This document shows, piece by piece, positions 2,394 through 62,205 of a DNA stretch of 64,000 nt. The stretch lies in IMG/VR virus record IMGVR_UViG_3300035666_000002, one strand, 5' to 3'. Within the stretch, counting starts at the first letter, position 1; each line of letters opens with the position of its first letter. Both the position numbers and the translations under genes were made by a program. This DNA comes from a virus. The notes beneath the pieces were generated by a model. It was not told the DNA's origin. It saw nothing but the letters and a program-made list of their open reading frames with translations, and ran no database searches.

Positions 2394-2779
2394 TATTTCT
2401 CAGATTCGCCTTCGACTCCTGAATTTAGCATCTCTTCTGCACCTTCTTCATCAGTCACTTCAGCGTAAAAATCGTAATAACCATCATCGGTTGGATAATA
2501 CAGAATGTAAATATACTTATCTGTACCATCAATAGCTTCAACTATTTCTTCTCCTTCAGAACTTAAATCATATATTGGATGAAAATCTAAATTTTCAACC
2601 ATGAGTATTTTTCTGACCAAAGTAATTCCAGTTTCTGGTGTGTAAACTGGATCTTCCAATACAACATTCAACATCAGATTCAACTTTTCAACAACCGAAG
2701 AGTCTAATGAAGATGAATCTACCGGCACATCACCGGTAGATTGCTCATAATCTTCTTTAATAAAGTTTTTAAAATTCAT
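2393..2779 (-). CDS. Acidic hypothetical protein with capsid-targeting-like N-terminus
   Basis: Starts MNFKNFIKE. Confidence 0.65.
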   Translation of the reverse strand: MNFKNFIKEDYEQSTGDVPVDSSSLDSSVVEKLNLMLNVVLEDPVYTPETGITLVRKILMVENLDFHPIYDLSSEGEEIVEAIDGTDKYIYILYYPTDDGYYDFYAEVTDEEGAEEMLNSGVEGESEK

Positions 2780-3369
2780 CAGCTATCTTTAAAAATCGTA
2801 TCATCGGAAGCATCAACAATACCTTGAGTTCCGATAGTACCCATAGCAACAAGAGTTTCGACTTGCGTTCTACCTGCACGACCACCCATTGTTATCGTGA
2901 TAGCAACGTTAGAGTTAGCAACTGTACCTACAACTGGAGAACGTTCGTAGTTACCACCACTATTGATTTGAATACCGGTGATTAACCCTGTTGTAGCATT
3001 TGCAACGATTTGTGCATTGGCTGCTGTTGTTCCTGTACCACCACCAGTAAATGTCAAATAAACTGTACCAGTAATCGAATCTGGTGAATAAGAATTCGCA
3101 TTTGCAGTGAGTGATGCAATAGGACCTGTTCCTTTCATTACAGCAACCCAACCAGCATGTTGCGGTTTGACATTGCTTGTTTGTGCGACGGACTGTTCAG
3201 TAACGTCAACACCGAAGATACCGACAGTACCTTTGTATCCTGTTTGAAACGCGCCGATTTGTGTATTACCAAATACTGTCTCACCATTGGCGCTTGCTGC
3301 AATACCAGTAGAAATACCGGTAAATTTTGGTGCAGCATTAGCTGAATCTGATTTTGCCCAAAGTGACAT
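2779..3369 (-). CDS. Putative virion structural protein
   Basis: G/T/A/N-rich beta-type sequence (MSLW...HAGWV...ETLVAM); own late promoter and AAGGAG RBS. Confidence 0.65.
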   Translation of the reverse strand: MSLWAKSDSANAAPKFTGISTGIAASANGETVFGNTQIGAFQTGYKGTVGIFGVDVTEQSVAQTSNVKPQHAGWVAVMKGTGPIASLTANANSYSPDSITGTVYLTFTGGGTGTTAANAQIVANATTGLITGIQINSGGNYERSPVVGTVANSNVAITITMGGRAGRTQVETLVAMGTIGTQGIVDASDDTIFKDS

Positions 3370-3390: not shown

Positions 3391-3398
3391 TATTTATG
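3391..3398 (-). promoter_or_regulatory. T4-type late promoter (CATAAATA)
   Basis: One mismatch to TATAAATA, in the intergenic gap upstream of the RBS. Confidence 0.6.
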
Positions 3399-3401
3399 AG
3401 T

Positions 3402-4850
3402 TTATACTTTTACGATTTGTGAAGAGAGTTCAGGTTCAGATTGAAAAGTTTCTGGCTTTTCTTTTTTATTATCTTTACCTTTTTTAGCTAAATCTTTTAC
3501 CATACCTGCCGTCTTTGAAAGGCTTCTTTTAGCAGCAGTGTTCACTTTATCTTCAGCGTCTTCTGGCTCCATATTTTCTTTGATTCCAGCTTGTCTTTTC
3601 GCTGCGGCTTTAGCTAGTTCTTTAACCCTCTGCATAGGATCTTTTTTATTTTCTGAAGAAACTATTGTGGGATTCTTAAAAGGAACTTTTGGCTGACCAG
3701 ATATGAAACGACCCTCATGTGCACCGGATGCTGTAGCTTGTTCGGTAGCCATTTTGATACCTTTTTGTCTACGAGCAATAATATTTTTAGCAAAACTTCC
3801 ATATTCACCTTTTACATGAGGCTTTAATTCTTTAACTTCTGCTTTAGCCTTTTGAACATAAGATTTTTTTGTTTCTTGACTGATTTCATCAAGTTGTTCA
3901 ACTTCTTCTTTTTTCATTCTTTCACGCTTTGCAGCAGCAGTTTCTTTGCCAGATTTAGTGAAACCATATTTTGCATATTTGCCGCTTGCAAGATCATGAG
4001 CATAAGTTCCTGGTGCAGCCGGTGCTTTAATATTCTTTCTGGGTGTCACAATAATTTCACTCTCTTTAATCTCAGCTTGCTTCAAAATGCCTTTCACTAA
4101 AGGAGCTTTTAATTGTTTGTGACGAGGAACGGAAATATGATGTTCAGCTTCAGAATGTGTGTATACATCATGGCTGCCTGATGATCTCGACAACTTCCAT
4201 CCTTTTTTCTTCAAATGGGAATGAACTGCGCGAGTATCCATATTTGCACCAGGCATCTCATCGAGTTGTTCAACTTCTTCACTTACAGACTTCCAGCCAC
4301 CACCTTTTGATTTGTACCACTTAGCAGCCCAACCATTTGCGTAAGCAGAAGGATACACATCAAATTTAGATTTAGCTAGTGCTTTTGCGCGGGACCACAA
4401 TGCAGGATTTGTTGGTGCATTTTTTTCTTCGAGATATTCAACTTCTTCATTCATCGCAGATTTTGCTGCTTCAATAGAAGTGTAATATTTTTGTTTTTTG
4501 CCATTTTTATATAACGCAAATGCATCTTCACCATATTTTTCAATATGATTTTCACCTTTTTTGAATACAACTTCACCACCCGACTCTTTAATGTATTCTT
4601 CGTTCATTTCAGCAGTCATATAGTTTGCAACTGTAGAAATATAATCTTCAGCTAAAGTAATCTTAGACTGGCACCATTCAGGCAAATTAGTGTTTGGCTC
4701 TAGCATATCATGAAGACGTTGAGCATTATGCATGATACTACGAAGATCGGACATAGCCATATCACCTTCGTAGTCGTACTCGCCTCTATCTTCATCCTTG
4801 GATTCGGTGATGCCTCTCACCGAATCTGCAACTTTCGAAAATTTTTTCAT
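3402..4850 (-). CDS. Putative internal-head polyprotein containing a HicA-like RNase module
   Basis: Basic modules separated by EEVEQLDE/IKE/LEE linkers; HicA signature GW..SRSSGSH..Y.H...ISVPRH...ILKQA. Confidence 0.75.
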   Translation of the reverse strand: MKKFSKVADSVRGITESKDEDRGEYDYEGDMAMSDLRSIMHNAQRLHDMLEPNTNLPEWCQSKITLAEDYISTVANYMTAEMNEEYIKESGGEVVFKKGENHIEKYGEDAFALYKNGKKQKYYTSIEAAKSAMNEEVEYLEEKNAPTNPALWSRAKALAKSKFDVYPSAYANGWAAKWYKSKGGGWKSVSEEVEQLDEMPGANMDTRAVHSHLKKKGWKLSRSSGSHDVYTHSEAEHHISVPRHKQLKAPLVKGILKQAEIKESEIIVTPRKNIKAPAAPGTYAHDLASGKYAKYGFTKSGKETAAAKRERMKKEEVEQLDEISQETKKSYVQKAKAEVKELKPHVKGEYGSFAKNIIARRQKGIKMATEQATASGAHEGRFISGQPKVPFKNPTIVSSENKKDPMQRVKELAKAAAKRQAGIKENMEPEDAEDKVNTAAKRSLSKTAGMVKDLAKKGKDNKKEKPETFQSEPELSSQIVKV

Positions 4851-4852
4851 AC

Positions 4853-6259
4853 TTAGTCCTTCTTAGCCATTTTGGTAGCAGTAGCGTACATAACTTCTTT
4901 TGCTCTTTCACCATAACGCTGTTTGAATCCTTCAAGCCCCTTTTTCATAGACTTGACATATTTCTCGCGCTTTTCCATTTCACCTGAAGATAATGTGCGC
5001 TCATCAATTTGTTCGACTTCTTCTTTATTTAATTTACCGGTGCCTCTTACGACACCTCTGGAACCAGCACCAATACCCATTTTTTTAGTAGCTAATTCCA
5101 TACCTGACCTTCTTTTGGCAAATCTAGCTTGATGAGGATCTCTCATTTTCTGGATTTCATCGGAAGCTTTTGAGAGAGCCTTGTGTACGGCAGGTGCGTT
5201 TGTTTTGGAAATAGGATTAGCACCTCTCATTCCTGGAGCACCCTTATTAGTATTTGCCATTAAACGTTTTACTTTTTGATGTTCTATACCTAACTTATTA
5301 TCTTTGTCAAAGGCATCATACTGATCCTTTGCAGCAGCCTTTTTATAACGACTTAAAAGGTTTTTAGATAATTCATCTAATTGTTGATACTCTTCAGTTT
5401 GCATGAAGTTTTCGATATCTTCAATAGTAAATGTTTGTTCAACCGATTCTTGTTTTACAGCCTGAACTGCGGGCTTTGCAACTTCAGCTTTTGCTTTACC
5501 CTGAGATTTATCTTGTGCTTTCTTGATTTCAGCATTGAACTCATCTTGTGAAGCTTCTTCTTTGATTGGATGAAAACCCATCTCTGCATGTCTTTTTCTA
5601 TTTTCTGGAGTATCAACGATAACTTTTTCTCTTCCAGATGTCTTATGAACAAGCATAACTGTTTTTTGTTTTTTCTTTACTGGACCTAAATCATCACTCT
5701 CGGCAATTTCAACTTCTTCTTTTTTCAAACCACCGCGAGCTTCAGCCGATTTAAGCATTGCGATACGATCACGATAACCACCGGTCCCTGACTTCATGTG
5801 CTTAGAGGCTTCCATCTCACCTTTAGTAGGATTCTTGATGTGCTTCATTGTAGTTTTAGCTTGATGACTTTGTGCTTCATCAACCTGCTCAACTTCTTCT
5901 TTCTTCATTCCAGGTTCTTTTTGTGGTGCGCTCCCTGCTTTACCTTTAACTAAAGTACCTTTAGCTTGACGAGCTAGGAATTTAGCAGCACGTTCATCAT
6001 GACCAGGCATCAAACTTGTCATTGGAACTTTACCTTCAGGAGCCTTACGTTCATTTTCTGGATTGTCATAGCCTTTACCTTTGACAACTGCTTCCTTAAC
6101 TGGCTTATGACCAGCACGAAGTTTGGATAGATCGCCAGCATCAATCTTGTGTTTTGGTTCACTCATCTTAGCAATAGCTTTCTGTTTTGATGAAAGTTCT
6201 GCTTCCATGACTTGTTTTACTGCCTCTGCTACTGATTTTAGAATCTTATCGTTATACAT
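4853..6259 (-). CDS. Putative internal-head polyprotein (Lys-rich modules)
   Basis: Linkers EEVEQVDE, EEVEIAE, EEYQQLDE and EEVEQIDE. Confidence 0.7.
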   Translation of the reverse strand: MYNDKILKSVAEAVKQVMEAELSSKQKAIAKMSEPKHKIDAGDLSKLRAGHKPVKEAVVKGKGYDNPENERKAPEGKVPMTSLMPGHDERAAKFLARQAKGTLVKGKAGSAPQKEPGMKKEEVEQVDEAQSHQAKTTMKHIKNPTKGEMEASKHMKSGTGGYRDRIAMLKSAEARGGLKKEEVEIAESDDLGPVKKKQKTVMLVHKTSGREKVIVDTPENRKRHAEMGFHPIKEEASQDEFNAEIKKAQDKSQGKAKAEVAKPAVQAVKQESVEQTFTIEDIENFMQTEEYQQLDELSKNLLSRYKKAAAKDQYDAFDKDNKLGIEHQKVKRLMANTNKGAPGMRGANPISKTNAPAVHKALSKASDEIQKMRDPHQARFAKRRSGMELATKKMGIGAGSRGVVRGTGKLNKEEVEQIDERTLSSGEMEKREKYVKSMKKGLEGFKQRYGERAKEVMYATATKMAKKD

Positions 6260-6279: not shown

Positions 6280-7596
6280 TTATCTAGTAACTTCTTCCCA
6301 GTCCATAGAACCATATATGTCTGCACCATTGGAACTTGCGGCTGCGACTAAGGTTAATTCATATGGAGTGTTTGTCAAACCGTTTCTTTCTAACTGAAAT
6401 TTGAATAATGCTTCTTTTAGAATATCAATTGGTGCTGATGCTTGATTAGTTGATGCAGTAAAACCTGAAGCTAAAACTCTACCACCAGTAACCGATCCAC
6501 CATCTATCTTATATTCTACCGCAGAATTATCTCCAGCACTCACCCATGTTCCACCACCAGAGGTATTCGCACCTGCTCTTACTTGCCAATTGTAATATGC
6601 ATTTGAAATTCCCAAAATTGATAATGCTGTTAAAATAACAATCGCATCCAAACGATTAGGTGTTGTTTTTAATCTTATTGAAATAACAGGATAATATGTT
6701 CCTGCTGTGGGCAAATCTACTGGTGATGTAATTGGTACTTGAACTGCTTGTTGTGAGCCAAACAATTCATATCCTCCTTCAGACATTATAGAGGAACAAA
6801 TCTGACTCAGTGTTGAATTACTTGTGGTTATACCTGTATTTTTTATTTCGATTCTTAAAGGTAATGATGCCGTTGTCATATAAGGCACAGTATTTCTATT
6901 ATCATTGTGGAATATATGCACTGGTATCATTTTTCCATCCACAACAAAACCACAACGAACATCACCAACACCTAACCATTCAATGTCCATCCAAAAAATA
7001 TTTGTTTTACTTACATCCAATCCATTAACGTGTTCGGGACCACCAATTTGTGTTGAATAACCAGTACCATCAAACTTATCAATATTCCAATTAGATTGTG
7101 ACACTCTTGTTTCTGTGACTGTGCTTGAAGTATTTGACCTTAACACAAGATAATTTGTTGTGCCATCATTCTCTAAGTATATACCATTGCTTTGATTATA
7201 ATAACCAATTCTCTGACGAAGATTTGCTTTTGGTGCATTCATCGTAACAGAATTCAAAATTAACAGAGATTTACCTGGCTGATATGAAAACACCTTTGTT
7301 GTTTCTCGAATCACCTCAGCATTTGCAGTTGTACCAATAGTCAAATCAATTGTACTTTGATTCTCTACAAAAGTAACCGAACTGTTACCTGCGGTGTTTG
7401 CCGATACCCATAAACCATTATCAGAAAATCTGTGTGAACTATCAAAGAGTGTAAATGGTTGTGAAAAACGTAAACGCCCGAATGCATCCACCATAGCACC
7501 AGATGGTGTTAGACTATCAGACAACATATTCACCTCATAACGGGTGAATACTTGCCCCGAGTCTATTTTATTTTTATCGGTCCTAAACTGTGCCAT
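6280..7596 (-). CDS. Putative virion structural protein, beta-sandwich/lectin-like
   Basis: DAFGRLR...SYQPGKS...WLGVG motifs; S/T/N/G-rich. Confidence 0.55.
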   Translation of the reverse strand: MAQFRTDKNKIDSGQVFTRYEVNMLSDSLTPSGAMVDAFGRLRFSQPFTLFDSSHRFSDNGLWVSANTAGNSSVTFVENQSTIDLTIGTTANAEVIRETTKVFSYQPGKSLLILNSVTMNAPKANLRQRIGYYNQSNGIYLENDGTTNYLVLRSNTSSTVTETRVSQSNWNIDKFDGTGYSTQIGGPEHVNGLDVSKTNIFWMDIEWLGVGDVRCGFVVDGKMIPVHIFHNDNRNTVPYMTTASLPLRIEIKNTGITTSNSTLSQICSSIMSEGGYELFGSQQAVQVPITSPVDLPTAGTYYPVISIRLKTTPNRLDAIVILTALSILGISNAYYNWQVRAGANTSGGGTWVSAGDNSAVEYKIDGGSVTGGRVLASGFTASTNQASAPIDILKEALFKFQLERNGLTNTPYELTLVAAASSNGADIYGSMDWEEVTR

Positions 7597-7599
7597 TTA

Positions 7600-7965
7600 T
7601 CAGCAATTCCAACGGCGTAGAGCCTTGTTAATTGGGCTATCCGGGTCTCTCGCATTTTCTGGATTAGTCAAACGCTTTTTCATACCACCCATTCTTGAGC
7701 AGAAAGATTTGCGGCGTGATGCTCTCTTACCAGTTGGATTCTTTTCAGTGACAGCAGTTTTTAACTTAGAACCAGGATTCTCACGACGATATGCATTTAC
7801 AGCCTTTTGTGAAAGACCATCAGTTCTATCAGCCTTGTTTACTTTTTGCCAATCTTCGTTGACTTCTTCTTTCACACAAGAACCTGGAGAGTATGGCTTT
7901 TTACCCGGTACTGGTTTATGCCCAGGCCAGCATCTCTCTGCGATAAAATCTTTATAGCGTTTCAT
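7600..7965 (-). CDS. Basic putative internal protein (CWxG module plus RRKSFCSRM module, DUF6321-like)
   Basis: MKRYKDFIAE N-terminus; VKEEVNE linker; RRKSFCSRM...ALRRWNC. Confidence 0.65.
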   Translation of the reverse strand: MKRYKDFIAERCWPGHKPVPGKKPYSPGSCVKEEVNEDWQKVNKADRTDGLSQKAVNAYRRENPGSKLKTAVTEKNPTGKRASRRKSFCSRMGGMKKRLTNPENARDPDSPINKALRRWNC

Positions 7966-10670
7966 AGGTAATTTCTCTTTTTAAATGTTGAAAGACTGAT
8001 ACCTTTCTTTTGTAACTCATCTGCTTTTTGATCACCTATGCTTGCACCTGTTTCATCACCAGTTAATTCTTTGATAGGTGTTACTTTACCTTTTTTATTA
8101 ATCTTCTCACCCATATCGCGACCTAGACTTTCTCCAGCACCAGCCATCGAAAGCCCAGGCTCTATGCCTTTGTCGATTTCGTTGATTTTCTGTTTGAAGT
8201 TTTCTTTGATCTTTGTGAGGGTGATTTTGGTCTTTTTACCTGTTTCGGTGCCTCTGTCTTCACTACTTTCTTCGGTTCTTCCTTCTTCACTGGTTCCGTG
8301 ACTTTCGGGGCAACCGCAATGCTCGGTGATGGTAATTCTTCCTTCTTCTCTTCGACTTTGGTCGATGGTGTGGGTAGAATCAATATTTTGTCCTGTGCCG
8401 CTCTTATTGCTCCATCCAATGGATGTGGTTCCGTCGTATTCTTTGGGCGAAACAAATTCTTCAGAAAATTGAACATTTAAGCTCTCCTTTAATTTAACCA
8501 TGTAACCTTTTTCTGCTTTGACCACTTCACCGTTGTTTCGATGTGCATCTTTCGCAGCAGCATTCCTGAGTATATAGATTCTCGGTTTACCATTCAAAGC
8601 AATAAAAACCGATCCGTCATGTTTTACTTTTTTAATGCCAGTATACTCTTCACTAATCTTTCCTTTTCCATAATTGGAGACATTAATAGGTTCTCCTTTT
8701 CTTTCTGGATTAGGATCATGCCTACGTTTTGCGGAAACAGCAGATGCACGTTCTTTTTTACTTAATTGTGCTCTCTTTTCGTTAGACATACATTTTGGTT
8801 TAGCTTCACCAGGTTCTCTAGCACAAGGACCAATTGCTTCACCTTTACTATTGATTCTCTTCCATCCACCTTCTGGATGTTTCGGATTAAACCAATTTCT
8901 CAAATCTTCAAAAACTGGAACTTTTTTGCCTAGAGTTAATGCATCAAATGCTCTCGTATCTGAAAATTCATTTGTTTCTTCTTCTACTTCTTTCTCACCG
9001 TTACCTGTAAGCATACCAAAAGCTTGTTTCAATTCTTCTGGCGTATCAGCAGTAACACTAACAGTTATAGCTTCAAATAATTGTTCGAATTCATTATCCA
9101 AAGACTCTTTCATCTTCAATGGTTGTGAAGAAGCACTTACAGGTATACTTGCTGCCTTCTTTTCCATTTTCTGTTGTTGAACATGGGTTGGATCTTGTAC
9201 CAATTTACCGTGGACAGAATGATGAGTAACTTTTCCGTTCTTACCGTAGCGCCCATAGCCGTAATATTGGAGACCTAGTTTTCTAGCCTCATCAGCAGCA
9301 GTATCTCCGTGAGGAGCAACCATCTCTGTGCCTTTTCTGGGAACACCTAAAGTGTCTTTCTTACTCAATTCACCAGCAATCCATTCTTTTGCTTTTGGAT
9401 GTTCAGCAGGTTTTTTGACAAATTCTTGAACGCCTTTAAAAATGTCAAGCATTTCTTCTTTTTTTGCTTTTACAATTTCAGGTGATGCTGTACGCAAATC
9501 TTCTGAATTATCAAACTCACGATATTTGTCACCAAATATCTTTGCTAACTCAGGTCTTGCAGCTTGAACAGCATCCCATTTTTCTTTACGAATTTCTTCT
9601 GGAACAGTTCTACCACCTCTCTGACCACGTTCAATATTTCTCTGCTTCGATACTTCATCAGCAGTATTGACCATGACCATACCTGTTTCATATCCTAATT
9701 CTTCAAGTTCTTTCTTAATTCTAGCTATTTTCTTAGGATCATCACCTGTTCCATTGATAATAAGCCCGTTTCTACCAAGAAGAGCTAATTTTTGGCGTAA
9801 TTCAGTAATATCTTTGGCACGACCACGAACAACGTTTCTTAATTCTTTTTCCGATTCTGGCATTTTCTTATCAAGATTCTTTTTGTCCATCAAGAATTCA
9901 AGTGCTTTATCGGAGTTAATCTCGGTTAGCCCATGCCCAGCTAGTGTGTTATCAAGAACATAATCTTTACCAGAACCTGGACCACCAGCTAGAAACATTG
10001 CTTTGAAAATACCTTTGTCGTGAACACCTTCAGACAAAATGACTTGAATCATATTTTCAAAGTTTTCTTTAATACCCATACCTTTTCTAACATCCATCAT
10101 CATTTCCCTTGCAATTTTATCTGAAACATTAGATGGAACACCTTGTTTGAATTTAGCAAAATCACTTTTGCTTGCTGCTTCTCTCATTTTAGATGCTGAC
10201 ATTCCCTCAACTCCTTCAGCATCAGGATCTCTTTCGCCAGCAGAATGTACTTGAATTTTCGTGAAATTGAAAAGACCATGAGGACCTTTTACGTTATTGT
10301 AACGATTCAATAAACGTTCATATTCTGAGGTTCTATCTGATCCACCGACCATATGAAGTTCAGTCACACCTTTTTTATACAAAGATGCTGCTTGTGCTAA
10401 AAAGTTTGGTTGTTCAGAAGAAGATACGGAAAAATTGACACCAGGAAAGAAAGCTTTAACGTACTTTAGCTTTTCTTTTGCACTAAGAGGGTTCTTTTTT
10501 GAGTCGTGAGAGTGTGATAGAACGATTAGATGATCGGCATCGTTCTCTTTTGCGATTGCTTTGACTTTTTCCACAAGTTTTGCATGACCTGTGGTTGGAG
10601 GATTCATTCTTCCGAATGCAAAAACGCACTTTTTCTGTGCTTTTTCAGCTAAAAAATCTTTAAATTTCAT
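7962..10670 (-). CDS. Multidomain protein: HxGH nucleotidyltransferase + zeta-toxin-like P-loop kinase + small modules
   Basis: FGRMNPPTTGH...GSDR...MSASKMR (cytidylyltransferase-like); FLAGGPGSGK, INSD and R..RGGR.VPE (zeta/AAA_33-like); MKFKDFLAE N-terminus. Confidence 0.8.
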   Translation of the reverse strand: MKFKDFLAEKAQKKCVFAFGRMNPPTTGHAKLVEKVKAIAKENDADHLIVLSHSHDSKKNPLSAKEKLKYVKAFFPGVNFSVSSSEQPNFLAQAASLYKKGVTELHMVGGSDRTSEYERLLNRYNNVKGPHGLFNFTKIQVHSAGERDPDAEGVEGMSASKMREAASKSDFAKFKQGVPSNVSDKIAREMMMDVRKGMGIKENFENMIQVILSEGVHDKGIFKAMFLAGGPGSGKDYVLDNTLAGHGLTEINSDKALEFLMDKKNLDKKMPESEKELRNVVRGRAKDITELRQKLALLGRNGLIINGTGDDPKKIARIKKELEELGYETGMVMVNTADEVSKQRNIERGQRGGRTVPEEIRKEKWDAVQAARPELAKIFGDKYREFDNSEDLRTASPEIVKAKKEEMLDIFKGVQEFVKKPAEHPKAKEWIAGELSKKDTLGVPRKGTEMVAPHGDTAADEARKLGLQYYGYGRYGKNGKVTHHSVHGKLVQDPTHVQQQKMEKKAASIPVSASSQPLKMKESLDNEFEQLFEAITVSVTADTPEELKQAFGMLTGNGEKEVEEETNEFSDTRAFDALTLGKKVPVFEDLRNWFNPKHPEGGWKRINSKGEAIGPCAREPGEAKPKCMSNEKRAQLSKKERASAVSAKRRHDPNPERKGEPINVSNYGKGKISEEYTGIKKVKHDGSVFIALNGKPRIYILRNAAAKDAHRNNGEVVKAEKGYMVKLKESLNVQFSEEFVSPKEYDGTTSIGWSNKSGTGQNIDSTHTIDQSRREEGRITITEHCGCPESHGTSEEGRTEESSEDRGTETGKKTKITLTKIKENFKQKINEIDKGIEPGLSMAGAGESLGRDMGEKINKKGKVTPIKELTGDETGASIGDQKADELQKKGISLSTFKKRNYL
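8162..8476 (-). CDS. Overprinted Lys/Pro-rich small protein nested in an alternate frame of the 902-aa gene
   Basis: AAGGAGAG RBS 5 nt before the ATG; amphipathic MFNFLKNLF start and histone-like tail. Confidence 0.55.
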   Translation of the reverse strand: MFNFLKNLFRPKNTTEPHPLDGAIRAAQDKILILPTPSTKVEEKKEELPSPSIAVAPKVTEPVKKEEPKKVVKTEAPKQVKRPKSPSQRSKKTSNRKSTKSTKA

Positions 10671-10694: not shown

Positions 10695-11141
10695 TTATTT
10701 CTTATTTATCATTTTCACAAAGTCGGAGCAAACTCCATAATATTTTTCTAAAAGATATTTCTCTTTATCCCACACTTTTTCTGGCATGACAGTTATACAT
10801 TTACCCATTGTTATTTTTCCTGGATATGCCCAAATATAACCTTTTGATGTCAATGTATAACTGTCTTTATCGTGCCAAAAGCAATGAAAATAATTCTCCA
10901 TGCAAAAATTTAGTGCATCTATATTTTTACAGTGAACCCATAGTTTATCTTTTCTCTCTTCCAACCAACTTTTAGAAACACTATATTCTGGAGTATCATG
11001 TCCCAAATAAAATCCATTCTCATAAACACGAAAATCTACTTCGACAAAATAATTTCTTAAAGCCTTATCGATATAAGAAGGTTCATTTTCTTTCGTAGAA
11101 TCAGGACCTTCAAGATTCCCGCGATGAGATATTAGAATCAT
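10695..11141 (-). CDS. Glycerophosphodiester phosphodiesterase/PLC-like TIM-barrel protein
   Basis: ISHRGN, VEVD, LGHD, WVHCKN and GVCSDF motifs. Confidence 0.75.
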   Translation of the reverse strand: MILISHRGNLEGPDSTKENEPSYIDKALRNYFVEVDFRVYENGFYLGHDTPEYSVSKSWLEERKDKLWVHCKNIDALNFCMENYFHCFWHDKDSYTLTSKGYIWAYPGKITMGKCITVMPEKVWDKEKYLLEKYYGVCSDFVKMINKK

Positions 11142-12295
11142 TTTAGTACCTTATTCAGTCTAGTGAAATGTCTACCTCCATCAAAAGTAGTATTCAACCA
11201 AATATCAATCATCTTAGTAAACATATTTTCATCAACATATTTTGATGGAATTGCGAAGTGATTGGCACAATTGTGTTTTATTGCATATTCAGCAGTAAAC
11301 TCATCAAAAGTCAAAGCGGAGATTAATCCTTCACAGTGATTTGCTGCGATATTAACACCCTGCCCAGACCTACAAAAAGAAATACCATAATCACAATCAT
11401 TATTATTGATTAATCTAGCTGATTGACTTACATAATCAAAATAATCACATGGCTTATTTACATATGTTCCAACATCAATAACTGGTAAATTTCTATTTAT
11501 CAGAAGCTTTTTAGCAATCTCTTTCATTTCATATCCAGAATGATCGCAAGCTAATGCAATAGGTTTTTCTCCAAATCTAGAGATAACTCTTTTACAGAAA
11601 AACTCAAATGTTTCTGGTGTCCCAAGAATATGCATTTTCTCTGTATTTTCAGCAGTAACATGTAGATTATCACGAATCATTAAATTGTACATTGGTGCAA
11701 TATAGAATTCATTTTTGACCAACATATTCTTTTCGATGACTTCTCGCCCATACTTCAAAAACATTTTACCGCTTTTAAAGTAGTAGAGACCCACATTAGC
11801 TTCTTGTGATATGACTTCTTTTTCGACAACCCTGGTCACTTTTCCAAATTCATCTTTTTCTGTATAACTATGATCTGGGCTATTAGCCAAGAATGTTAAG
11901 AGAAAACCATCAGACTTTTCATCGATGGTTGCAGGATCAAACACAGGTTCAAAATAAACATCTGGTGTATAAATGAAGAGAGGTAAATCGTTATCAATAT
12001 AGTTTTCAGCAAGAACACAGGTTTCAAGTGCTCCTCTAGTTACTTTGTCGACCACAAAGATTTGAATGTCGGATCCGAATTTCTTTTTTAAAATTCTATC
12101 AATACTGAAATTGTAGATATGATCCAATCTAACAATAAAAATTAGATTGCATTCTCTAGTATTGATCGATGATAATGACCAATCAATAACGTGTTTGTGT
12201 TTTGCTAAAATCAGAGGCTTGGGCATTGTATAGCCAGCATCCAAAAATCTCTGTGCTTTACCAGCAATAGGTAGTAACAAATTATACTTTTTCAT
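11138..12295 (-). CDS. Sugar-phosphate nucleotidyltransferase fused to an RpiB-family sugar-phosphate isomerase
   Basis: N-terminal PIAGKAQRF...PKPLI, EK and ANVGLYYF; C-terminal ACDHSG, FCRSGQG..IAAN, HNCAN and FDGGRH. Confidence 0.85.
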   Translation of the reverse strand: MKKYNLLLPIAGKAQRFLDAGYTMPKPLILAKHKHVIDWSLSSINTRECNLIFIVRLDHIYNFSIDRILKKKFGSDIQIFVVDKVTRGALETCVLAENYIDNDLPLFIYTPDVYFEPVFDPATIDEKSDGFLLTFLANSPDHSYTEKDEFGKVTRVVEKEVISQEANVGLYYFKSGKMFLKYGREVIEKNMLVKNEFYIAPMYNLMIRDNLHVTAENTEKMHILGTPETFEFFCKRVISRFGEKPIALACDHSGYEMKEIAKKLLINRNLPVIDVGTYVNKPCDYFDYVSQSARLINNNDCDYGISFCRSGQGVNIAANHCEGLISALTFDEFTAEYAIKHNCANHFAIPSKYVDENMFTKMIDIWLNTTFDGGRHFTRLNKVLK

Positions 12296-12968
12296 TATAT
12301 TTCCTAATCATATTCGAAGTAAAAATGCAGGCATTCTGAATCGCATCTTCTTCAGTTAAATTCATATAGTATAGAGAATACAGAACGCCGGCAGCAAACA
12401 TATCACCCGCACCCAACACATTTGCATTTTTAACTATCATATTTTGCGGTATATTGTATGTATATTTGTTTTCTCTGCTTATATAATCACAACCATATTT
12501 TGTGTGAAAGAATACTCCTCTCTTAATATTACTGACTAGAAAATCTACATTCTGACAATCTTCATCAGAAACAAAGATGTAATCTAATAATTTAATTAGA
12601 TCCTGATCCTTCATTTCTTTACCTTTACAGGTATCAGCAGTTAAAACTCCTTCTAAAAAAGGAATCATTTGTAAATTCTCAAGTTCATTAATATACATGA
12701 AATGGTGAACTCTAGAATTAAGTAGTTTGATTGGTGTGATTAAATGCTCGTTCAAACTTGCAACAGAACTTCGATTGTTTTTCGATCTTTCTATGAAAAT
12801 ATCAGCATATCCCAAAGTCATAGGTGATATTCCTATTTGCAAGCCATTATCAATCTCATTAAAGGCACGAACGGTATTCGCTATGCCTCCTAGATTCATT
12901 GTATTAAAATCGCCATCAAAGATATTATCTACAACTAATTGCCCATAAATTGCAAAATCAAACATCAA
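12282..12968 (-). CDS. PfkB/ribokinase-family carbohydrate kinase
   Basis: C-terminal NVLGAGDMFAAG signature. Confidence 0.75.
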   Translation of the reverse strand: MMFDFAIYGQLVVDNIFDGDFNTMNLGGIANTVRAFNEIDNGLQIGISPMTLGYADIFIERSKNNRSSVASLNEHLITPIKLLNSRVHHFMYINELENLQMIPFLEGVLTADTCKGKEMKDQDLIKLLDYIFVSDEDCQNVDFLVSNIKRGVFFHTKYGCDYISRENKYTYNIPQNMIVKNANVLGAGDMFAAGVLYSLYYMNLTEEDAIQNACIFTSNMIRKYNEKV

Positions 12969-13501
12969 AACTTCTCTTTTTTATCTAATTCATAAACTCG
13001 ATTCAAATGTTCTTTTAAATCGTAAGGAGGTATCATATCTTTAGTAGTAAGGTATTCATACAATTCAGATATTAAATTATTACCGCCATTGTTTTTCAAA
13101 ACGATACAAATATTCTTCAATTCATTTACCGCATCAAATGGGCAAAACTTATATCCTATTAAAGACATCAATCCATAATCGAAAATATCATCACCAACAA
13201 AAAGAATTTCGTCTGAATTCACACCATACTCCTGACATATTTCATTCAAGTAATCTGCTTTGTCGGTGTGAGTTCCATTCTGACGATTGACTATAACATC
13301 AATCTTTCTATTTTCTGCGATTGAAACATTAAAAGGATCACCAGTTAAGAATATGACATTAATTCCTTGTGCTCTAAATCTCTTAATTGCAGTCCAATCT
13401 TTATCACAAAAAGTTTTTAATCTGACAGTTCCATCTCTATCATAATACTTCTTACCATCAGTTAAAACTCCATCAACATCAAGAATTATCAGTTTTATCA
13501 T
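12965..13501 (-). CDS. KdsC/YrbI-like HAD phosphatase
   Basis: LDVDGVLTDG, TG, K and VGDDIFD HAD motifs. Confidence 0.85.
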   Translation of the reverse strand: MIKLIILDVDGVLTDGKKYYDRDGTVRLKTFCDKDWTAIKRFRAQGINVIFLTGDPFNVSIAENRKIDVIVNRQNGTHTDKADYLNEICQEYGVNSDEILFVGDDIFDYGLMSLIGYKFCPFDAVNELKNICIVLKNNGGNNLISELYEYLTTKDMIPPYDLKEHLNRVYELDKKEKF

Positions 13502-14225
13502 TTAATTTAAACTTTCTAAAAGTCACTTGTCTATCGACAAAATTAGATTTTCTGCCATAATGTTTCTCAAGAATTTCTGGATATCTTCTAAACAAATAAT
13601 CGTTCATTTCATTCATTGCAGCAGTCTTATCATAATAACTGTCTCTAAATGGTTGATGAATCATTGCAGAGTGAATGACATATGCGGGCTGTTGGAACAA
13701 ATCGTAAAAGGTTTTATCGATACCCCATGCTATTTCTAGATTCCAGTGCCCAATAAACTCCATCAAAAATTTAAACAAATCTAATCTAAAGAAGCACGAC
13801 CCCATCTCAATAAAATTTGTCTCAGAAAAATCACACGCTGGGTCATTGAATAGTGGCTCATAAATTAAACTAGAATCGTGAGGCATCGATAGTTGCCAAT
13901 ATCCGAAGTTGTATGCTTGTGCATATTTTAATCCAGTATTGAAGTCTTGATATCCAGTAATCAAATCGTCATCAACACAACCGATATACTTGAATCGTTC
14001 AATATCAATAATATCTTTGACCTTCTGCATCAACTGCCACTTATGCCCTTTAATGTGAACAATATGATCATATGATCCTGGCTCAGGTTCAAAATCGTTA
14101 TAAACAATAACGAGAGTTTCATAATCTCTCTCATTATGTACCCATCGCCAATGATCTTCATGTTTCCATCTTGAATCTTTTGGAATGTACATTCCAGCGG
14201 GGCACACTATCAAATTATTAGCCAT
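13479..14225 (-). CDS. Putative glycosyltransferase (DUF707-like)
   Basis: KGHKW, DDD, ETNFIEMG and WGID motifs. Confidence 0.55.
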   Translation of the reverse strand: MANNLIVCPAGMYIPKDSRWKHEDHWRWVHNERDYETLVIVYNDFEPEPGSYDHIVHIKGHKWQLMQKVKDIIDIERFKYIGCVDDDLITGYQDFNTGLKYAQAYNFGYWQLSMPHDSSLIYEPLFNDPACDFSETNFIEMGSCFFRLDLFKFLMEFIGHWNLEIAWGIDKTFYDLFQQPAYVIHSAMIHQPFRDSYYDKTAAMNEMNDYLFRRYPEILEKHYGRKSNFVDRQVTFRKFKLNDKTDNS

Positions 14226-14910
14226 ATTTTGCCTTCACGAAAGGGTGTTTCTTTGGGTGTTCTGGAACATTAGGTCTACATAAAGTATAAAAATCATTCA
14301 CATTACTAATATGATTTTGATTACTCATGAAACTAATATTTTCTGGACCGATTCTTGGAACTAAGAAATTTAGTATACCGTGTGTATCCGGATACATTGT
14401 GCCTCTGGGCCATCCATATGTTTCTCTCATAGCCCATTTAACCTGATCGCTAAATTTGTGATTCCAAATATAGAAACAATCACAAACAAATCTATGCGAT
14501 TGCCACCACATCGGGTCTTCCGGAAAAAATATATTAACTTTGGTGAAATCAATTGGAAAAGTAGTAATCTTTTGATGAAAGAGAATATCAAACCTGGTGA
14601 AAACCACCAAGTCTAAATCCTCTCCATCAAAAGCATTATGCAGAGCAGATTTAGCAGTAAATGCATCCGAACCTTCAAGTTGGCTAAAAATAACTTTTCT
14701 AGGATTTACATAAGACCAAAAGTCTTCTTCGGCCTTTTTATCTTCCATCCTATAGGTGGAGGCATAAATCACAGCTTCGTTTTTCAAATCAACGAAAGGT
14801 TGAATCACATTTTCTTTTATGTTTTCCCAACAATCACGAAAGTCTCTGTAGTAGCCAGTTTTTTTGTCTAGACCATGGGAGATTCCATAAAAACCAAAAC
14901 CTATTCTCAT
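14218..14910 (-). CDS. Hypothetical protein, possible GT-A-like transferase
   Basis: TRFD motif and gene context. Confidence 0.4.
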   Translation of the reverse strand: MRIGFGFYGISHGLDKKTGYYRDFRDCWENIKENVIQPFVDLKNEAVIYASTYRMEDKKAEEDFWSYVNPRKVIFSQLEGSDAFTAKSALHNAFDGEDLDLVVFTRFDILFHQKITTFPIDFTKVNIFFPEDPMWWQSHRFVCDCFYIWNHKFSDQVKWAMRETYGWPRGTMYPDTHGILNFLVPRIGPENISFMSNQNHISNVNDFYTLCRPNVPEHPKKHPFVKAKYG

Positions 14911-16112
14911 TTTTCAATACTAAATTCAGGAAAATATTTAACAAAAACGTCTTTCTTTCCAACTCTATATGTTTGAACTTTTCTTTTCATTTCACCATAA
15001 AAGTTCCATGCAAGAGGAATAAAGCATATTGTATCAAAATATTTGAAATTGTCAAGATGATTCATACCATAGATGGGCACAGAACTTCCGGGTGTAAACA
15101 ATCCTTGTTTCAAAGGATTTTCATCGATGATAAAGTCCAGAGAAGTTTCTGCTGCATTTAGTAGAGTGTTTCCTTTTGCTGGAGCACCTAAGCCAACAGT
15201 AGTAATTCCTTGTTCTTTCATTTCCTGAACAATATTCTTAAATTTCTTCAATATATCGTTACATCGTTCATAATATTGAACATATGTTTCTGGAAAATAA
15301 AGACCAGATTTAGTTTCCAATGCAATTAGATTCTCGATAGTTTTTGGTGCTTTTGAAAACTTAGAGATGATGAAAATGTAACTTGTTCCATGCACAGGAG
15401 ATTTTACAACATCAACTAAATGTAAATCTGCACGTTTACAAAGAGCATCAATAGATTTGATATTATAGAAAGACAAATGCTCATGGTAAATCGTATCGAA
15501 CTCGCCATTTAAAATCATATCAGATTGAGATGTGGTTGCAAAAAGTAAACTATCTTTATGCATTACATTACGAATATTTTGCAACAACTCTAATTGATCA
15601 TAATTATGTGCGAATGCATTTTGACAAACAATCACATCAAAACTTTGGCTAAACTCTTTACCTGTGAAGTAACCACAAACAACCTCATGTCTCTGAGAAG
15701 ATGTTGCATAAAGATTTTCAGCAGGATCCACACCATAAGTTTGTGCTCCCTGATCCTGAAAATAGTTTAACTGACTTCCATCATTACAGCCAATATCTAA
15801 AACTGTGCGAGGTTTGGTTCCAAATTTTTCAGCAGTGAATTGTGAAAACCAATCAAAATATTCCAATTGAGATTTGGCTGTACCGGAAACATACAAATAA
15901 TCCTTAAACATCAAATCAGGATTAACTCGATGCGTCAATTGGACATGGTAACAGTTATCACACCGAACAATTGCTAGAGGATAAGTTTCCTGAACTTCAT
16001 CTCGACTTTTCTTATAAGAGTTTGCAAGGGGCTGTTCTTTTAAATCCAAAACAGGAATTAAAGTGTCGTGCCCACATGCAATACAATTACTAATTGCTTC
16101 TACATTAACCAT
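14907..16112 (-). CDS. NDP-hexose C-methyltransferase
   Basis: CxxC Zn motif, QPLANSY, VLDIGCNDG, FDTIYHEH, HG and GAPAKGNT. Confidence 0.9.
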   Translation of the reverse strand: MVNVEAISNCIACGHDTLIPVLDLKEQPLANSYKKSRDEVQETYPLAIVRCDNCYHVQLTHRVNPDLMFKDYLYVSGTAKSQLEYFDWFSQFTAEKFGTKPRTVLDIGCNDGSQLNYFQDQGAQTYGVDPAENLYATSSQRHEVVCGYFTGKEFSQSFDVIVCQNAFAHNYDQLELLQNIRNVMHKDSLLFATTSQSDMILNGEFDTIYHEHLSFYNIKSIDALCKRADLHLVDVVKSPVHGTSYIFIISKFSKAPKTIENLIALETKSGLYFPETYVQYYERCNDILKKFKNIVQEMKEQGITTVGLGAPAKGNTLLNAAETSLDFIIDENPLKQGLFTPGSSVPIYGMNHLDNFKYFDTICFIPLAWNFYGEMKRKVQTYRVGKKDVFVKYFPEFSIEK

Positions 16113-17134
16113 CTGTCATTCTCCAAATACCAATCACTCACCTGTTTAATTCTTTGAGAGAAGGCAACTTTAGGTTCCCATCCGAGACTTCTCATCAATT
16201 CACCATCAAGTGCATAACGCAAATCATGCCCTGGTCTACTCGAATGAAAATCTACCATTTCATAAATCAAATCTTTTCCTTGTGCTTTAGCAACAAGTTT
16301 AGCAAGCGTTAGATTATCAACTTCTTCTTTACCAACAATATTAAACTTAGGGCATCTTGCATTACCATAATCCATTTCTGGAACTGGCTTGTTTTTGACC
16401 AAGAATAAAAGTGCATCTGCAACATCTGCGGCATGAATATAGAATCGACTGCCTGCTTGAGTTTTAGTATGATCTGAATGAATAAAGATTTTTTCACCTT
16501 TACGCACCCGATCAATACACAAAGGAATAAATTTCTCTGGTGTTTGTCTCTCACCAAATACATTCATTGTATGTGTAATCATCATTGGAAGTTTATATGT
16601 GTTTTCATATGCAACACACAATTCTTCAGCAGCAGCTTTTGATGCAGAGTATGGATTCGTAGAATTATACCTATCACGCTCTTTGTATGCAACACCAGGA
16701 GGTGCAACACCAAAGATTTCGTCGGTACTGAAATACAGGAAAGTTTCTAACTGATATGGAAGTTTTCTTGCAAACTCAAGAAGATGAGCAGTACCGATAG
16801 TGTTATCGAAAATAAATTCCATCGGATGGGTGATCGACCTATCTACATGCGAAGATGCAGCCAAATGAAGAATCACATCAATATTTCCGTGTTTATGGAG
16901 AAAGTTTTGCGTGATAGGATTAATCTCTGCTTTCAAATCATGAAAGACTACATTAACTCTCTTCTGAACTTCTCTATCATAACTCTCCAAAACTTCATGT
17001 AGACGATTTAAATTGCCAGAATAATCTAGCCGGTCAATCGTTGTAATTTTCCAATCTGTGACTCGAATCAAAAGATCAATAACATGGTGTGCAATGAAGC
17101 CTGCACCACCAGTAATCAAAACATGTTTACTCAT
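16100..17134 (-). CDS. rfbB: dTDP-glucose 4,6-dehydratase (extended SDR)
   Basis: TGGAGFI, HLAASSHVDRSI, STDE, YSASK, PEKFIP and RPGHDLRY. Confidence 0.9.
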   Translation of the reverse strand: MSKHVLITGGAGFIAHHVIDLLIRVTDWKITTIDRLDYSGNLNRLHEVLESYDREVQKRVNVVFHDLKAEINPITQNFLHKHGNIDVILHLAASSHVDRSITHPMEFIFDNTIGTAHLLEFARKLPYQLETFLYFSTDEIFGVAPPGVAYKERDRYNSTNPYSASKAAAEELCVAYENTYKLPMMITHTMNVFGERQTPEKFIPLCIDRVRKGEKIFIHSDHTKTQAGSRFYIHAADVADALLFLVKNKPVPEMDYGNARCPKFNIVGKEEVDNLTLAKLVAKAQGKDLIYEMVDFHSSRPGHDLRYALDGELMRSLGWEPKVAFSQRIKQVSDWYLENDRWLM

Positions 17135-17813
17135 TAATAATTGCTCCTGTAGGTGCTATAACACCTTCTAATCCAATAGGTTGAATTTGTACCCATTTAA
17201 ATTTATTTAAATGTTTGTAATAAGAATGCTCAACATCAATATCATATTCCAAACAATCATTAAAAATAATAGGCAGCTTAGATTGAAATGTATCAAACAA
17301 AGAAGCATCCATGTGCCAAAGTCTCAATTCGAAAATTGTATCGACACCCGCTCTCTCTTGTTTGTCTTTTGTCATCCAAGAATTTACCGTGGGAAGAAAC
17401 ACAAATGAGTCTTTAAAATCATCTTGATTTAATACAAAATTATCATTTAACTTGTATCTTCCAGACATCTTATAGTATCGTTTAGTTTCAATTTTATTTT
17501 TTGAATACCAATCGAGTGCAATGATAAAACTCAATGTTTCAGCGAGACTCCTCAAACCAACACTCGAAAAGTGTTTGATTTGAGGATTTGATCCCACATA
17601 CAAAAAATGTACACCCATAAGACCTAGTTGTCCAACATATTCTGATAAAGGCATATCATAAGAAGCATCGAACATAATAATCTTGTTGTTTGGGCAATAC
17701 TTTTGTATTGATTTTACGGTTTCTACCGTCTGTTCAAATCTTTGATGATTATTAAAAACAGATAACTGCTTAACATTTAAAGCAGAACTAACAAAAAACA
17801 CACCATCAACCAT
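17127..17813 (-). CDS. Hypothetical protein, possible glycosyltransferase
   Basis: R..QT..T..SI and K.SGRY motifs; start reassigned to MVDG (17813) to minimise overlap. Confidence 0.45.
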   Translation of the reverse strand: MVDGVFFVSSALNVKQLSVFNNHQRFEQTVETVKSIQKYCPNNKIIMFDASYDMPLSEYVGQLGLMGVHFLYVGSNPQIKHFSSVGLRSLAETLSFIIALDWYSKNKIETKRYYKMSGRYKLNDNFVLNQDDFKDSFVFLPTVNSWMTKDKQERAGVDTIFELRLWHMDASLFDTFQSKLPIIFNDCLEYDIDVEHSYYKHLNKFKWVQIQPIGLEGVIAPTGAIINE

Positions 17814-18642
17814 ATTTCGCCTCAATAACTTTTCGCCATTCTGGTACTCTATCATACTGATGAACGATTGTAAACTCTTTTCCAGTCGAAGTAGTAACTT
17901 TACCTTCGACCATCTTAGGTTCTGCTTCTAAAAGAAAAGGTCTAAACTGTTCTATTTTAGATGGGTCTGCTGTTGTACCTAATTGTGCTGCCCAACCATC
18001 TTCAGAATTCATATATTTGCAAGTGTGCGTATATGGTGTCATAGAAATCATAAAATTAAATGTAGATTGGTCGCAAATAGGAATTGGGCGATTGATTGCT
18101 GCGGTAAAGATATTGATAATCAAATCGCGCATTTGTGTGGCACGACCAGCTAGAACGCCGACGTTGTAGATAGTGTTGTTTTTATATTTTTCGTGAATGT
18201 AGGGACCATAAGTCTCTAAAAGATTCTGATTGCCCCAAGGCTCGTCTTTATACTTCATGCTTTCAGAAGCAAAGACTAAACCTTTATCACCTAAATTGTT
18301 TTCTAGCCAATCGATGGGATTTTGTTGGAATACAACATCTTTGACATCGGTTGTAATAACATAACGATAATCGTTCCTACAGAGATGATCGTAAATGTGA
18401 ATAAATCTTTCTACATGAACAGGAATTCTTCCAGGCTCATATTTAAGATTTCCTTGTTCGTCTTGACCGAATCCAATGACTTTAAATCCCGCTTCAATTA
18501 CTTTTCTTGCAGATTCGTTATCGCAGTTCATTAGAATGAGAACTTTCTCACCTTCAAAACCGCATTTATTGATAGAGTTAACCCAATACTTTAGGGTTTC
18601 CCATGTGTAATTATTCGCACATCCTATAATCAAATCTTTCAT
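17806..18642 (-). CDS. Putative GT-A glycosyltransferase
   Basis: TTDVKDVVFQ (DxxD), N.G...G, DQ and IVHQYDR. Confidence 0.65.
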   Translation of the reverse strand: MKDLIIGCANNYTWETLKYWVNSINKCGFEGEKVLILMNCDNESARKVIEAGFKVIGFGQDEQGNLKYEPGRIPVHVERFIHIYDHLCRNDYRYVITTDVKDVVFQQNPIDWLENNLGDKGLVFASESMKYKDEPWGNQNLLETYGPYIHEKYKNNTIYNVGVLAGRATQMRDLIINIFTAAINRPIPICDQSTFNFMISMTPYTHTCKYMNSEDGWAAQLGTTADPSKIEQFRPFLLEAEPKMVEGKVTTSTGKEFTIVHQYDRVPEWRKVIEAKYG

Positions 18643-18672: not shown

Positions 18673-18984
18673 TTATTGGCCTGGTGTGTCCTTTTTATAC
18701 TTCTTTACCAGGTGTTTTGTGCCCCATTGCCCTGCTCCTGCTACAGGTAAGATATCAGGATTTGGCGACTTCTTTTCTTCACTGACACTTTTATGTAGTT
18801 TAACTCCAGTAACTTTCTGAACTAGATCCCATGCTTCTTTATGTCTTTTATTTTTAACATGATCATCGAAAGATTTCTTTTGATTTTCATTAGCATGTTT
18901 TTTAAATTTAATTAGTTCCATAATACCTATATTACCAGCATATGCTGCTTCATGTAACACTTCAAATTGCTTAAAGTTATACAT
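18673..18984 (-). CDS. Small putative internal-head protein
   Basis: MYNFKQFEVLHE start, VSEE linker and C-terminal YKKDTPGQ. Confidence 0.55.
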   Translation of the reverse strand: MYNFKQFEVLHEAAYAGNIGIMELIKFKKHANENQKKSFDDHVKNKRHKEAWDLVQKVTGVKLHKSVSEEKKSPNPDILPVAGAGQWGTKHLVKKYKKDTPGQ

Positions 18985-21024: not shown

Positions 21025-21032
21025 TATTTATA
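21025..21032 (-). promoter_or_regulatory. T4-type late promoter TATAAATA
   Basis: Exact consensus overlapping the gp41 stop, upstream of 21001. Confidence 0.75.
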
Positions 21033-47920: not shown

Positions 47921-47928
47921 TATTTATG
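47921..47928 (-). promoter_or_regulatory. T4-type late promoter (CATAAATA)
   Basis: Upstream of the gp3-like gene, just after the gp23 terminator. Confidence 0.6.
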
Positions 47929-50395: not shown

Positions 50396-50418
50396 TAGGA
50401 ATCTCCTTTGTGTTTATT

Positions 50419-50426
50419 TATTTATA
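50419..50426 (-). promoter_or_regulatory. T4-type late promoter TATAAATA
   Basis: Exact consensus upstream of gp22. Confidence 0.8.
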
Positions 50427-55100: not shown

Positions 55101-55128
55101 TTAATTTATCTCCTATCTCTCTTATTTA

Positions 55129-56802: not shown

Positions 56803-56852
56803 TTTCTGTTCTCCTTATTTTATAGAACTTTTTTATTTTCCTATTTATTATT

Positions 56853-62197: not shown

Positions 62198-62205
62198 TAT
62201 TTATA
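62198..62205 (-). promoter_or_regulatory. T4-type late promoter TATAAATA
   Basis: Exact consensus upstream of gp13. Confidence 0.8.

Follow-up and report, generated by a model that had tools for sequence, protein, structure and literature searches.

Acidic linkers ending in a head-protease motif join small modules in candidate head-cargo polyproteins of an aquatic T4-like phage

Introduction

The internal proteins of phage T4 are the classic case of proteins injected along with phage DNA, and they are known as single proteins in a few coliphages. Here we analyze a locus with a more composite layout: two tandem genes, A and B, whose products are strings of small modules joined by a recurring acidic linker that ends in the cleavage motif of the T4 prohead protease, gp21. 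The genes lie in a 64,000-nt stretch of DNA (IMG/VR record IMGVR_UViG_3300035666_000002; hereafter the window, whose numbering is used throughout) from an uncultured, aquatic T4-like myophage. Gene A (468 aa, 4853–6259) and gene B (482 aa, 3402–4850) are on the minus strand with a gap of 2 nt between them; the neighboring genes C and D, the head genes, and all linkers and modules located below are on the same strand. A first-pass annotation, made from the sequence alone, had proposed that A and B are cut inside the head into small proteins that are injected at infection, and had presented this as a candidate new system.

In T4, the internal proteins IPI, IPII, IPIII and Alt begin with a ten-residue address ending in (I/L)-x-E; the capsid targeting sequence is MKTYQEFIAE (PMC8442874). 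T4 gp21 cuts after the Glu of (I/L)-x-E, and when Asp takes the corresponding position of a targeting sequence, targeting still occurs but processing is blocked (PMC9026906, PMC5694885). The internal proteins are basic (PMC8442874), and they are diverse, fast-evolving and linked to anti-restriction (PMC3012670, PMC9026906, PMC8442874). Our locus shares with them an orthologous protease, basic putative cargo, apparently late genes and, in gene D, an address identical to the T4 sequence at seven of ten positions. Whereas a T4 internal protein is a single module with one cut, the chains here hold up to six or seven modules, with a conserved acidic linker of 7–8 residues at each junction; the N-termini of A and B also differ from the T4 address, and the locus is known from sequence only.

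The T4 core proteins gp22, gp67 and gp68 offer a precedent for multiple cutting, since gp21 breaks them into short fragments at multiple internal (I/L)-x-E sites (PMC5694885, PMC8442874). The gp22 encoded in the window has a linker-like site of its own, SEEEQIDE at residues 85–92, in agreement with the first-pass annotation. T4 core proteins are conserved, structural and, once cut, largely expelled from the head, whereas A and B vary in their combination of modules and include folded domains, among them a HicA RNase. Ejection proteins of the giant phages phiKZ and SPN3US are likewise head-internal, and the prohead protease cleaves them behind the Glu of a three-residue motif, in some cases at more than one site (PMC5694885). 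Their motif, however, is A/S/G-x-E, they have long propeptides instead of strings of cargo modules, and neither a repeated linker nor shuffling of modules is reported for them.

Polyvalent proteins (Iyer et al. 2017, PMC5512222) combine unrelated domains in one chain predicted to travel with DNA, and that paper draws the analogy to viral polyproteins. With five or six modules per protein, A and B fall within the range of two to fifteen unrelated domains used to recognize polyvalent proteins; Pfam and fold searches of A and B found none of the embedded peptidase or anti-restriction domains that also mark them. In place of an embedded peptidase and large anti-restriction enzymes, the locus has modules of 25–125 aa whose predicted release is by a separate head protease at a fixed linker. 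HicA, cyanophages and a linker are absent from the text of that paper, which mentions T4-like phages once, for ARTs outside genuine polyvalent proteins. The virion proteins T4-GC119, T4-GC190 and T4-GC1454 (Sullivan et al. 2010, PMC3037559) share modules with A–D and, as in the window, adjoin the cytidylyltransferase gene. They are annotated there only as hypothetical or structural, and the modular linker build and possible processing are not described.

The targeting sequence, gp21 processing, internal proteins, multiply cut core proteins, polyvalent proteins and virion T4-GC119/GC190 are all known parts, and the locus is best called an extension of T4 targeting, processing and internal proteins, not a wholly new system. 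The linker-joined build of modules is the part that we did not find described. Literature searches with linker strings, PSAYANGWA and DUF6321 returned no paper, and searches on prohead-protease polyproteins returned only the polyvalent-protein paper and unrelated work. We found no paper on a fixed protease-type linker joining many tiny cargo modules, on module exchange at such a linker within or between genes, or on this build being very widespread among T4-like phages of aquatic habitats.

Results and Discussion

Acidic linkers in tandem proteins

A and B are indeed, as first annotated, tandem chains of modules separated by a recurring acidic linker. Together they contain seven linkers of the type EEVE-x-(I/L/V)-x-E, and all seven end in (I/L/V)-x-E. 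Those in A are EEVEQVDE (residues 121–128; 5876–5899), EEVEIAE, in a 7-residue register (181–187; 5699–5719), EEYQQLDE (289–296; 5372–5395) and EEVEQIDE (413–420; 5000–5023). Those in B are EEVEYLEE (135–142; 4425–4448) and two copies of EEVEQLDE (191–198; 4257–4280 and 315–322; 3885–3908). Shorter I-K-E sites occur at A 232–234, B 87–89 and B 261–263. Chance occurrence was estimated from 20,000 residue shuffles per protein, with composition preserved; shuffled proteins averaged 0.003 motifs and had at most 1, whereas the real proteins have 3 and 4. Among the 77 minus-strand open reading frames (ORFs) of the window, the string EE[VIY][EQ] is found, besides in A and B, twice in gp22 and once each in two other ORFs.

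AlphaFold2 models of A and B, built with fragment alignments, consist of confident small folds with stretches of low predicted local distance difference test score (pLDDT <50) between them. Such stretches contain or adjoin five of the seven linkers, as well as each of the three I-K-E sites. In A, three linkers coincide with low-confidence stretches (97–128, 182–197, which begins within EEVEIAE, and 400–420), and another stretch (234–238) follows I-K-E234. In B, the stretches are 81–91, including I-K-E89; 136–143 and 189–200, at two linkers; and 264–274, after I-K-E263.

Relatives of the two proteins are abundant in metagenomes, with >5000 for B and >2600 for A at query coverages of 10% to 100%, and the same linker is present in nearly all of them. 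To avoid circularity, we tabulated linkers using only the N-terminal EE[VI]E as anchor, which gave 266 unique contexts; in 246 of these a hydrophobic residue and then x-E followed. With P1 denoting the residue before the predicted cut, P3 in the 8-residue register was I (82), L (80) or V (32), and P2 was mostly D (125) or E (58), with N (8) and others, Q included. P1 was Glu in 195 of 197 cases, with no Asp, in this register and in 49 of 49 in the 7-residue register, or 244 of 246 in both together. The linker is conserved as a unit, with residue-specific constraints, and its last three positions obey the T4 gp21 rule. A plain acidic spacer is disfavored, because Asp and Glu would then be expected to swap at P1 as freely as they do at P2, whereas a site recognized by a Glu-specific protease would keep Glu there. 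The Leu codons at P3 are varied (TTA, CTC, CTT, TTG and CTA in the window and one relative), and the constraint therefore acts on the peptide; the linker core GAAGAAGTTGAA is well kept in the DNA too.

Module exchange at linkers

We cut 246 proteins at their linkers, stripped the linkers and clustered the pieces; single-linkage clustering with the linkers left in had chained everything together. The proteins represent 172 distinct architectures, in which modules recur as whole units. A-type proteins keep a constant N-terminal module and a constant C-terminal helical hairpin around a variable middle, as in the cluster series 1-5-27-12-2 (the window), 1-5-27-17-12-2, 1-8-2 and 1-5-9-18-23-31-2. 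The hairpin, A 421–468 in the window (4856–4999), belongs to cluster 2, which is C-terminal in 81 of its 84 instances and forms the fixed end of A-type proteins.

Coincidence of module borders in relatives with linkers had been set beforehand as a test on which the proposal could fail. Clean indels (non-redundant, at least 25 aa, with conserved flanks) were collected between pairs of close relatives; both borders lay within a linker in 56 of 94, where random placement expects 3.1, so the borders do coincide. Two other border tests were rejected: BLAST high-scoring segment end-points were too noisy, and when loosely related pairs were aligned globally, artifacts prevailed, with 59 of 817 events at linkers.

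Gene D illustrates the exchange, since its relatives have an extra module or a HicA module inserted between the D linkers. In a syntenic 155-kb scaffold (L003), the extra module lies exactly between KEEV-x-E and KEEVELDE. A 145-kb contig (L006) keeps the gene order C, D, a 436-aa gene, A and B; there the HicA module is in D, behind the address and a Cys-Trp mini-module, and B has no HicA. Linkers are the places at which modules come and go, change order and pass from one gene to another.

A 112-aa ORF downstream of the cluster, at 1452–1790, is found in one relative (P0320) fused behind an address and a HicA module, and therefore belongs to the same exchangeable pool.

Properties of the modules

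The predicted pieces of A are residues 1–12, 13–128, 129–187, 188–296, 297–420 and 421–468, and those of B are 1–16, 17–142 (with an inner border at I-K-E89), 143–198, 199–322 and 323–482. The piece B 199–322 comprises HicA and a second part after I-K-E263. The modules had been described as basic, and this holds for seven of the nine pieces longer than 40 aa, with isoelectric points of 9.3–10.2 (9.9–10.7 without the linker); the other two are acidic.

The HicA module (B 199–263; 4062–4256), bounded by QLDE and I-K-E, was identified correctly in the first pass. Residues 209–261 match Pfam PF07927 (E 5.5e-13, 49.2 bits against a cut-off of 27), the module has the dsRBD-like alpha-beta3-alpha fold of the family, matching 6g26 (6g26_E) and 5yrz at TM 0.84–0.86 and rmsd 1.4 Å, and the histidine of its G-S-H motif aligns with the conserved His of 1whz. 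It thus resembles the HicA of HicAB toxin–antitoxin pairs in family, fold and conserved histidine. Unlike in those pairs there is no adjacent HicB match: neither neighbor, gene A upstream nor the downstream ORF at 2779–3369, matches Pfam, although the scan for HicB over the remaining window was not exhaustive. The module also sits within a polyprotein, between two predicted cut sites, and moves between B and D in relatives.

A structure search of the modules had been suggested, and HicA is what it yielded. Foldseek of the whole-protein models of A and B against the PDB gave HicA as the sole match, with no significant fold for the other modules and no peptidase, and Pfam found nothing in A and only HicA in B. 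Searches at the sequence level connected further modules to other phages. The KNAPTNP...PSAYANGWAAKWY module (B 143–190; 4281–4424; phrog_27331), modeled as two helices, is 76% identical to part of the T4-GC119 protein of S-BM3, which has EEYIEE and then KNVPTNPALW. The two modules that follow QLDE linkers had been considered paralogous; compared directly they are only weakly similar (E 0.03), but both fall into a group of 18 clusters, 84 module instances in all, with the shared start L-S-x-x-T-L-x-S-Y-x-x-K-A. Whole-protein tblastn against cultured phages matched single modules only.

The head protease and address peptides

The proposed cutting enzyme is encoded in the same window, where the first pass had placed it. 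The gp21 orthologue (50430–51083; phrog_207, E 4e-69) is 38% identical to T4 gp21, and its catalytic triad of H72, S126 and D154 is intact and invariant in 70 homologues. The major head protein gp23 (48007–49353; assigned with PHROGs) has I-T-E at residues 50–52 (49198–49206), which had been presumed to be its maturation site; alignment agrees with this, matching I-T-E52/A to the known T4 maturation cut L-T-E65/A, and we predict cutting there. The T4 gp23 propeptide is 65 residues long (PMC5694885). A complex prediction for gp21, using the 70-homologue alignment, with A 100–150 (51 residues) scored 0.00; it was run without controls and is not used either way.

Some gp21 homologues (P0369, P0375, P0387 and P0392 among others) are 560–590 aa long, with the protease match split in two around an insert of ∼370 aa that may be an intein or homing element.

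Genes C and D carry T4-like addresses. Both starts fit the pattern of a T4-type address, which is about ten residues long, with an aromatic side chain at position 4, a hydrophobic one at position 7 and (I/L)-x-E as its last three residues (8–10). Gene D (121 aa, 7600–7965) starts with MKRYKDFIAE, followed by a Cys-Trp mini-module, a KEEVNE linker and DUF6321; gene C (902 aa, 7962–10670) starts with MKFKDFLAE and contains a cytidylyltransferase, a zeta/AAA_33-type kinase and small modules. The proposed delivery platform is not confined to A and B; it also takes in these two neighbors. The N-termini of A and B are family-specific conserved peptides, each protein type with its own, with a later (I/V)-x-E. 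Among short relatives, MKTFKQF- or MKSFTQF-type starts stand directly before the same modules; one such protein reads address, EVEILDE, HicA, EEVELDE, DUF6321.

T4-like address peptides also open four further ORFs of the window: MNFKNFIKE at 2393–2779, MNFKDFIVE at 18984–20222 (a DUF6267 protein of 412 aa), MYNFKQFEVLHE at 18673–18984 and MKSLDDFKQILE at 51872–52633. Because of these starts, many more proteins may be packed in the head of this phage.

Virion proteins of cultured relatives

Relatives of the modules have been recovered from purified virions of the cultured Synechococcus cyanophage S-SM1, whose proteome lists counts of 25 for the T4-GC190 cytidylyltransferase, 13 for T4-GC119, 12 for T4-GC1453, 10 for T4-GC1454 and 7 for T4-GC1455 (PMC3037559, Suppl. 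Table 8). S-SM1 GC190 starts with MKKFSAFLNE and is 40% identical to the N-terminal domain of gene C. GC1454 is the gene next to GC190, and contains KKEEVENVEE. S-SM1 GC119 has modules in common with D (E 8e-22) and with C 590–664 (E 1.5e-12). Its N-terminus is 53% identical to A 432–467, in the C-terminal module (E 4.5e-7), and its match to B 160–194 is weak (E 0.006).

Address peptides and KEEV-type linkers in multi-module proteins occur in S-SM1 genes 190–192 (L009, 2270–5346). They also occur in genes 18, 20 and 21 of Melnitz, a phage of Methylophilales (OM43) (L010, 5959–10320). Both phages are cultured, and could serve as laboratory systems for cleavage.

Interpretation and alternatives

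We lean, by a little, toward the reading that A, B, C and D are late head-cargo polyproteins, cut by gp21 after the linker Glu, whose small basic pieces are carried with the DNA. The modules would probably be loaded into the capsid and cut apart, because the linker ends in a T4-type head protease motif. In the mechanism that we propose, C, D, a 438-aa virion protein, A and B would be transcribed as one late unit, and the products would enter the prohead core by means of N-terminal address peptides, T4-type on C and D and the conserved peptides of their own on A- and B-type proteins. The activated gp21 orthologue would then cut after the Glu of each (I/L/V)-x-E that closes an acidic linker. This would release about ten small, mostly basic modules, the HicA RNase among them, which would stay with the DNA like T4 internal proteins and may, again like them, enter the cell along with it. 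The same linker is also the point of module exchange in evolution. These steps are not equally secure: presence in the virion is very likely, cutting at linkers is probable, injection could fall either way, and a role in host takeover or anti-defense is rather doubtful. For A and B themselves, we infer packaging, linker cutting, retention, injection and function from the comparisons above.

A bolder version, which we hold only tentatively, makes the linker a dual-purpose device, at once a gp21 cut site and a junction for swapping, duplicating and moving cargo among the genes of a single late cluster in wild T4-like phages of lakes and oceans, through which a population could quickly re-assort injected effectors against host defenses. 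The repertoire would then include the HicA RNase, DNA-binding helical modules and Cys-Trp mini-domains.

Several observations weigh against cargo that is packaged and cut. The S-SM1 proteome shows presence, not processing, and the linkers of S-SM1 GC119 are less canonical. Neither A (start MYNDKILKSVAE) nor B (start MKKFSKVADSVRGITE) has a canonical capsid targeting sequence; that their conserved N-terminal peptides act as addresses is our assumption, and an (I/L/V)-x-E close to the N-terminus is lacking in many B-type proteins. Two of the seven linkers are modeled as helical, A 289–296 at the start of a long helix and B 315–322 within the helix 305–347, and these helices run on into L/I-S-x-x-T-x-x-S-Y-x-x-K-A modules. 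For about 40% of the clean indels, at least one border falls outside a strict linker. The EEVE-Q part is strictly conserved, which cutting alone leaves unexplained because gp21-type recognition needs only three residues, and the gp23 site of this phage, AGVITE, has no acidic character. If the linkers are cut, cleavage after the final Glu would also leave an acidic tail on every module.

Some of these points would fit chains that are packaged and stay whole, the linker being a soluble spacer and recombination junction and its likeness to a gp21 site incidental, or used for occasional trimming. Polyvalent packaged proteins are already a known theme (PMC5512222), the virion data speak to presence and not to processing, two linkers are modeled as helices, the EEVE-Q part is kept beyond what gp21 needs, and the conserved GAAGAAGTTGAA core could act as microhomology for exchange. 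A spacer, however, should tolerate Asp at P1, where none is seen although P2 accepts D, E, N or Q; nor does it account for a P3 limited to I, L or V, or for Leu codons that vary while the peptide is held. Active gp21 in the same head would moreover meet dozens of exposed consensus sites. We regard uncut chains as unlikely. Somewhat less likely still is that the proteins are expendable core or scaffold parts like T4 gp22, gp67 and gp68, cut small and mostly lost from the head before DNA packaging, and so not delivered effectors. The linker-like SEEEQIDE in the phage's own gp22 is in keeping with this, as are the multiple cuts in T4 core proteins and the lack of an enzymatic fold match for most modules. 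Yet module content varies widely between close relatives, unlike a structural scaffold, and B and C contain folded domains of enzyme or toxin type (HicA in the former, cytidylyltransferase and kinase in the latter); mature S-SM1 virions yielded relatives of the modules, and the pieces are basic, like the T4 internal proteins that are retained.

The missing canonical targeting sequence of A and B could also mean that they are late cytoplasmic proteins, never packaged, whose modules act in the infected cell and whose linkers either stay uncut or are substrates of a different protease. But their genes share a unit with address-bearing genes and a virion-protein gene, and homologous modules occur behind T4-like addresses and in S-SM1 virions; we consider this explanation very improbable.

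If the linkers are cut as predicted, then one conserved peptide would be the release point for a large pool of small injected proteins, unannotated and rapidly re-assorting, in the abundant T4-like phages of oceans and lakes. The head-cargo reading, if true, would also supply a sequence rule for finding phage-delivered effectors in metagenomes, would explain several DUF families (DUF6321 and the T4-GC119 modules), and would offer a natural multi-cargo design for protein delivery by phage capsids.

Genomic context

The window was assigned to a T4-like myophage through its head and tail genes. PHROGs matches, all on the minus strand, were found for gp23, gp22, gp21, gp20 portal, tail tube, sheath and large terminase. 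Its gp23 is ∼64% identical to that of cyanomyoviruses (Kyanoviridae). At the nucleotide level, the sole match in a search of phage genomes was of 170 nt, in two Synechococcus phages.

Genes C, D, the 438-aa gene, A and B form a tightly packed row on the minus strand. The 438-aa protein between D and A (6280–7596) matches phrog_1645, annotated "virion structural protein". A motif resembling a late promoter, ATAAATA, is at 10703–10709, 32 nt before gene C, and the next one downstream is at 3391–3397, after B. ATAAATA is depleted in the window, with 10 matches against 23 expected, and all 10 are on the coding strand. Nine of the 10 precede a start codon by 20–40 nt; for gp22, gp19, gp18, gene C and the ORF after B, among others, the distance is 21–39 nt. 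Besides the two sites given above, the motif is at 21025–21031, 47921–47927, 50415–50425, 55123–55129, 56842–56848 and 62198–62204. From this placement, ATAAATA looks like the late promoter of this phage. Since the stretch between C and B contains no ATAAATA and no convincing terminator, C, D, the 438-aa gene, A and B are probably a single late unit. A perfect T4 late promoter, TATAAATA, is not found directly before A or B.

A set of sugar-nucleotide and glycosyltransferase genes lies directly upstream of gene C (10695–18642), and is syntenic in the 155-kb scaffold (L003, 1–5482). It includes a dehydratase, a C-methyltransferase, a PfkB kinase, an RpiB-like protein and a HAD phosphatase.

Gene C itself contains a nested, out-of-frame ORF of 104 aa (8162–8476, minus strand). 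In the same place of the syntenic scaffold (L003, 7568–7873) an ORF of 101 aa is open. The two have similar starts (MFNFLKNLF in the window and MLRFFKGLL in the scaffold), followed by HPLDG and a K/P-rich tail, and from these similarities the nested ORF may be a conserved overprinted gene.

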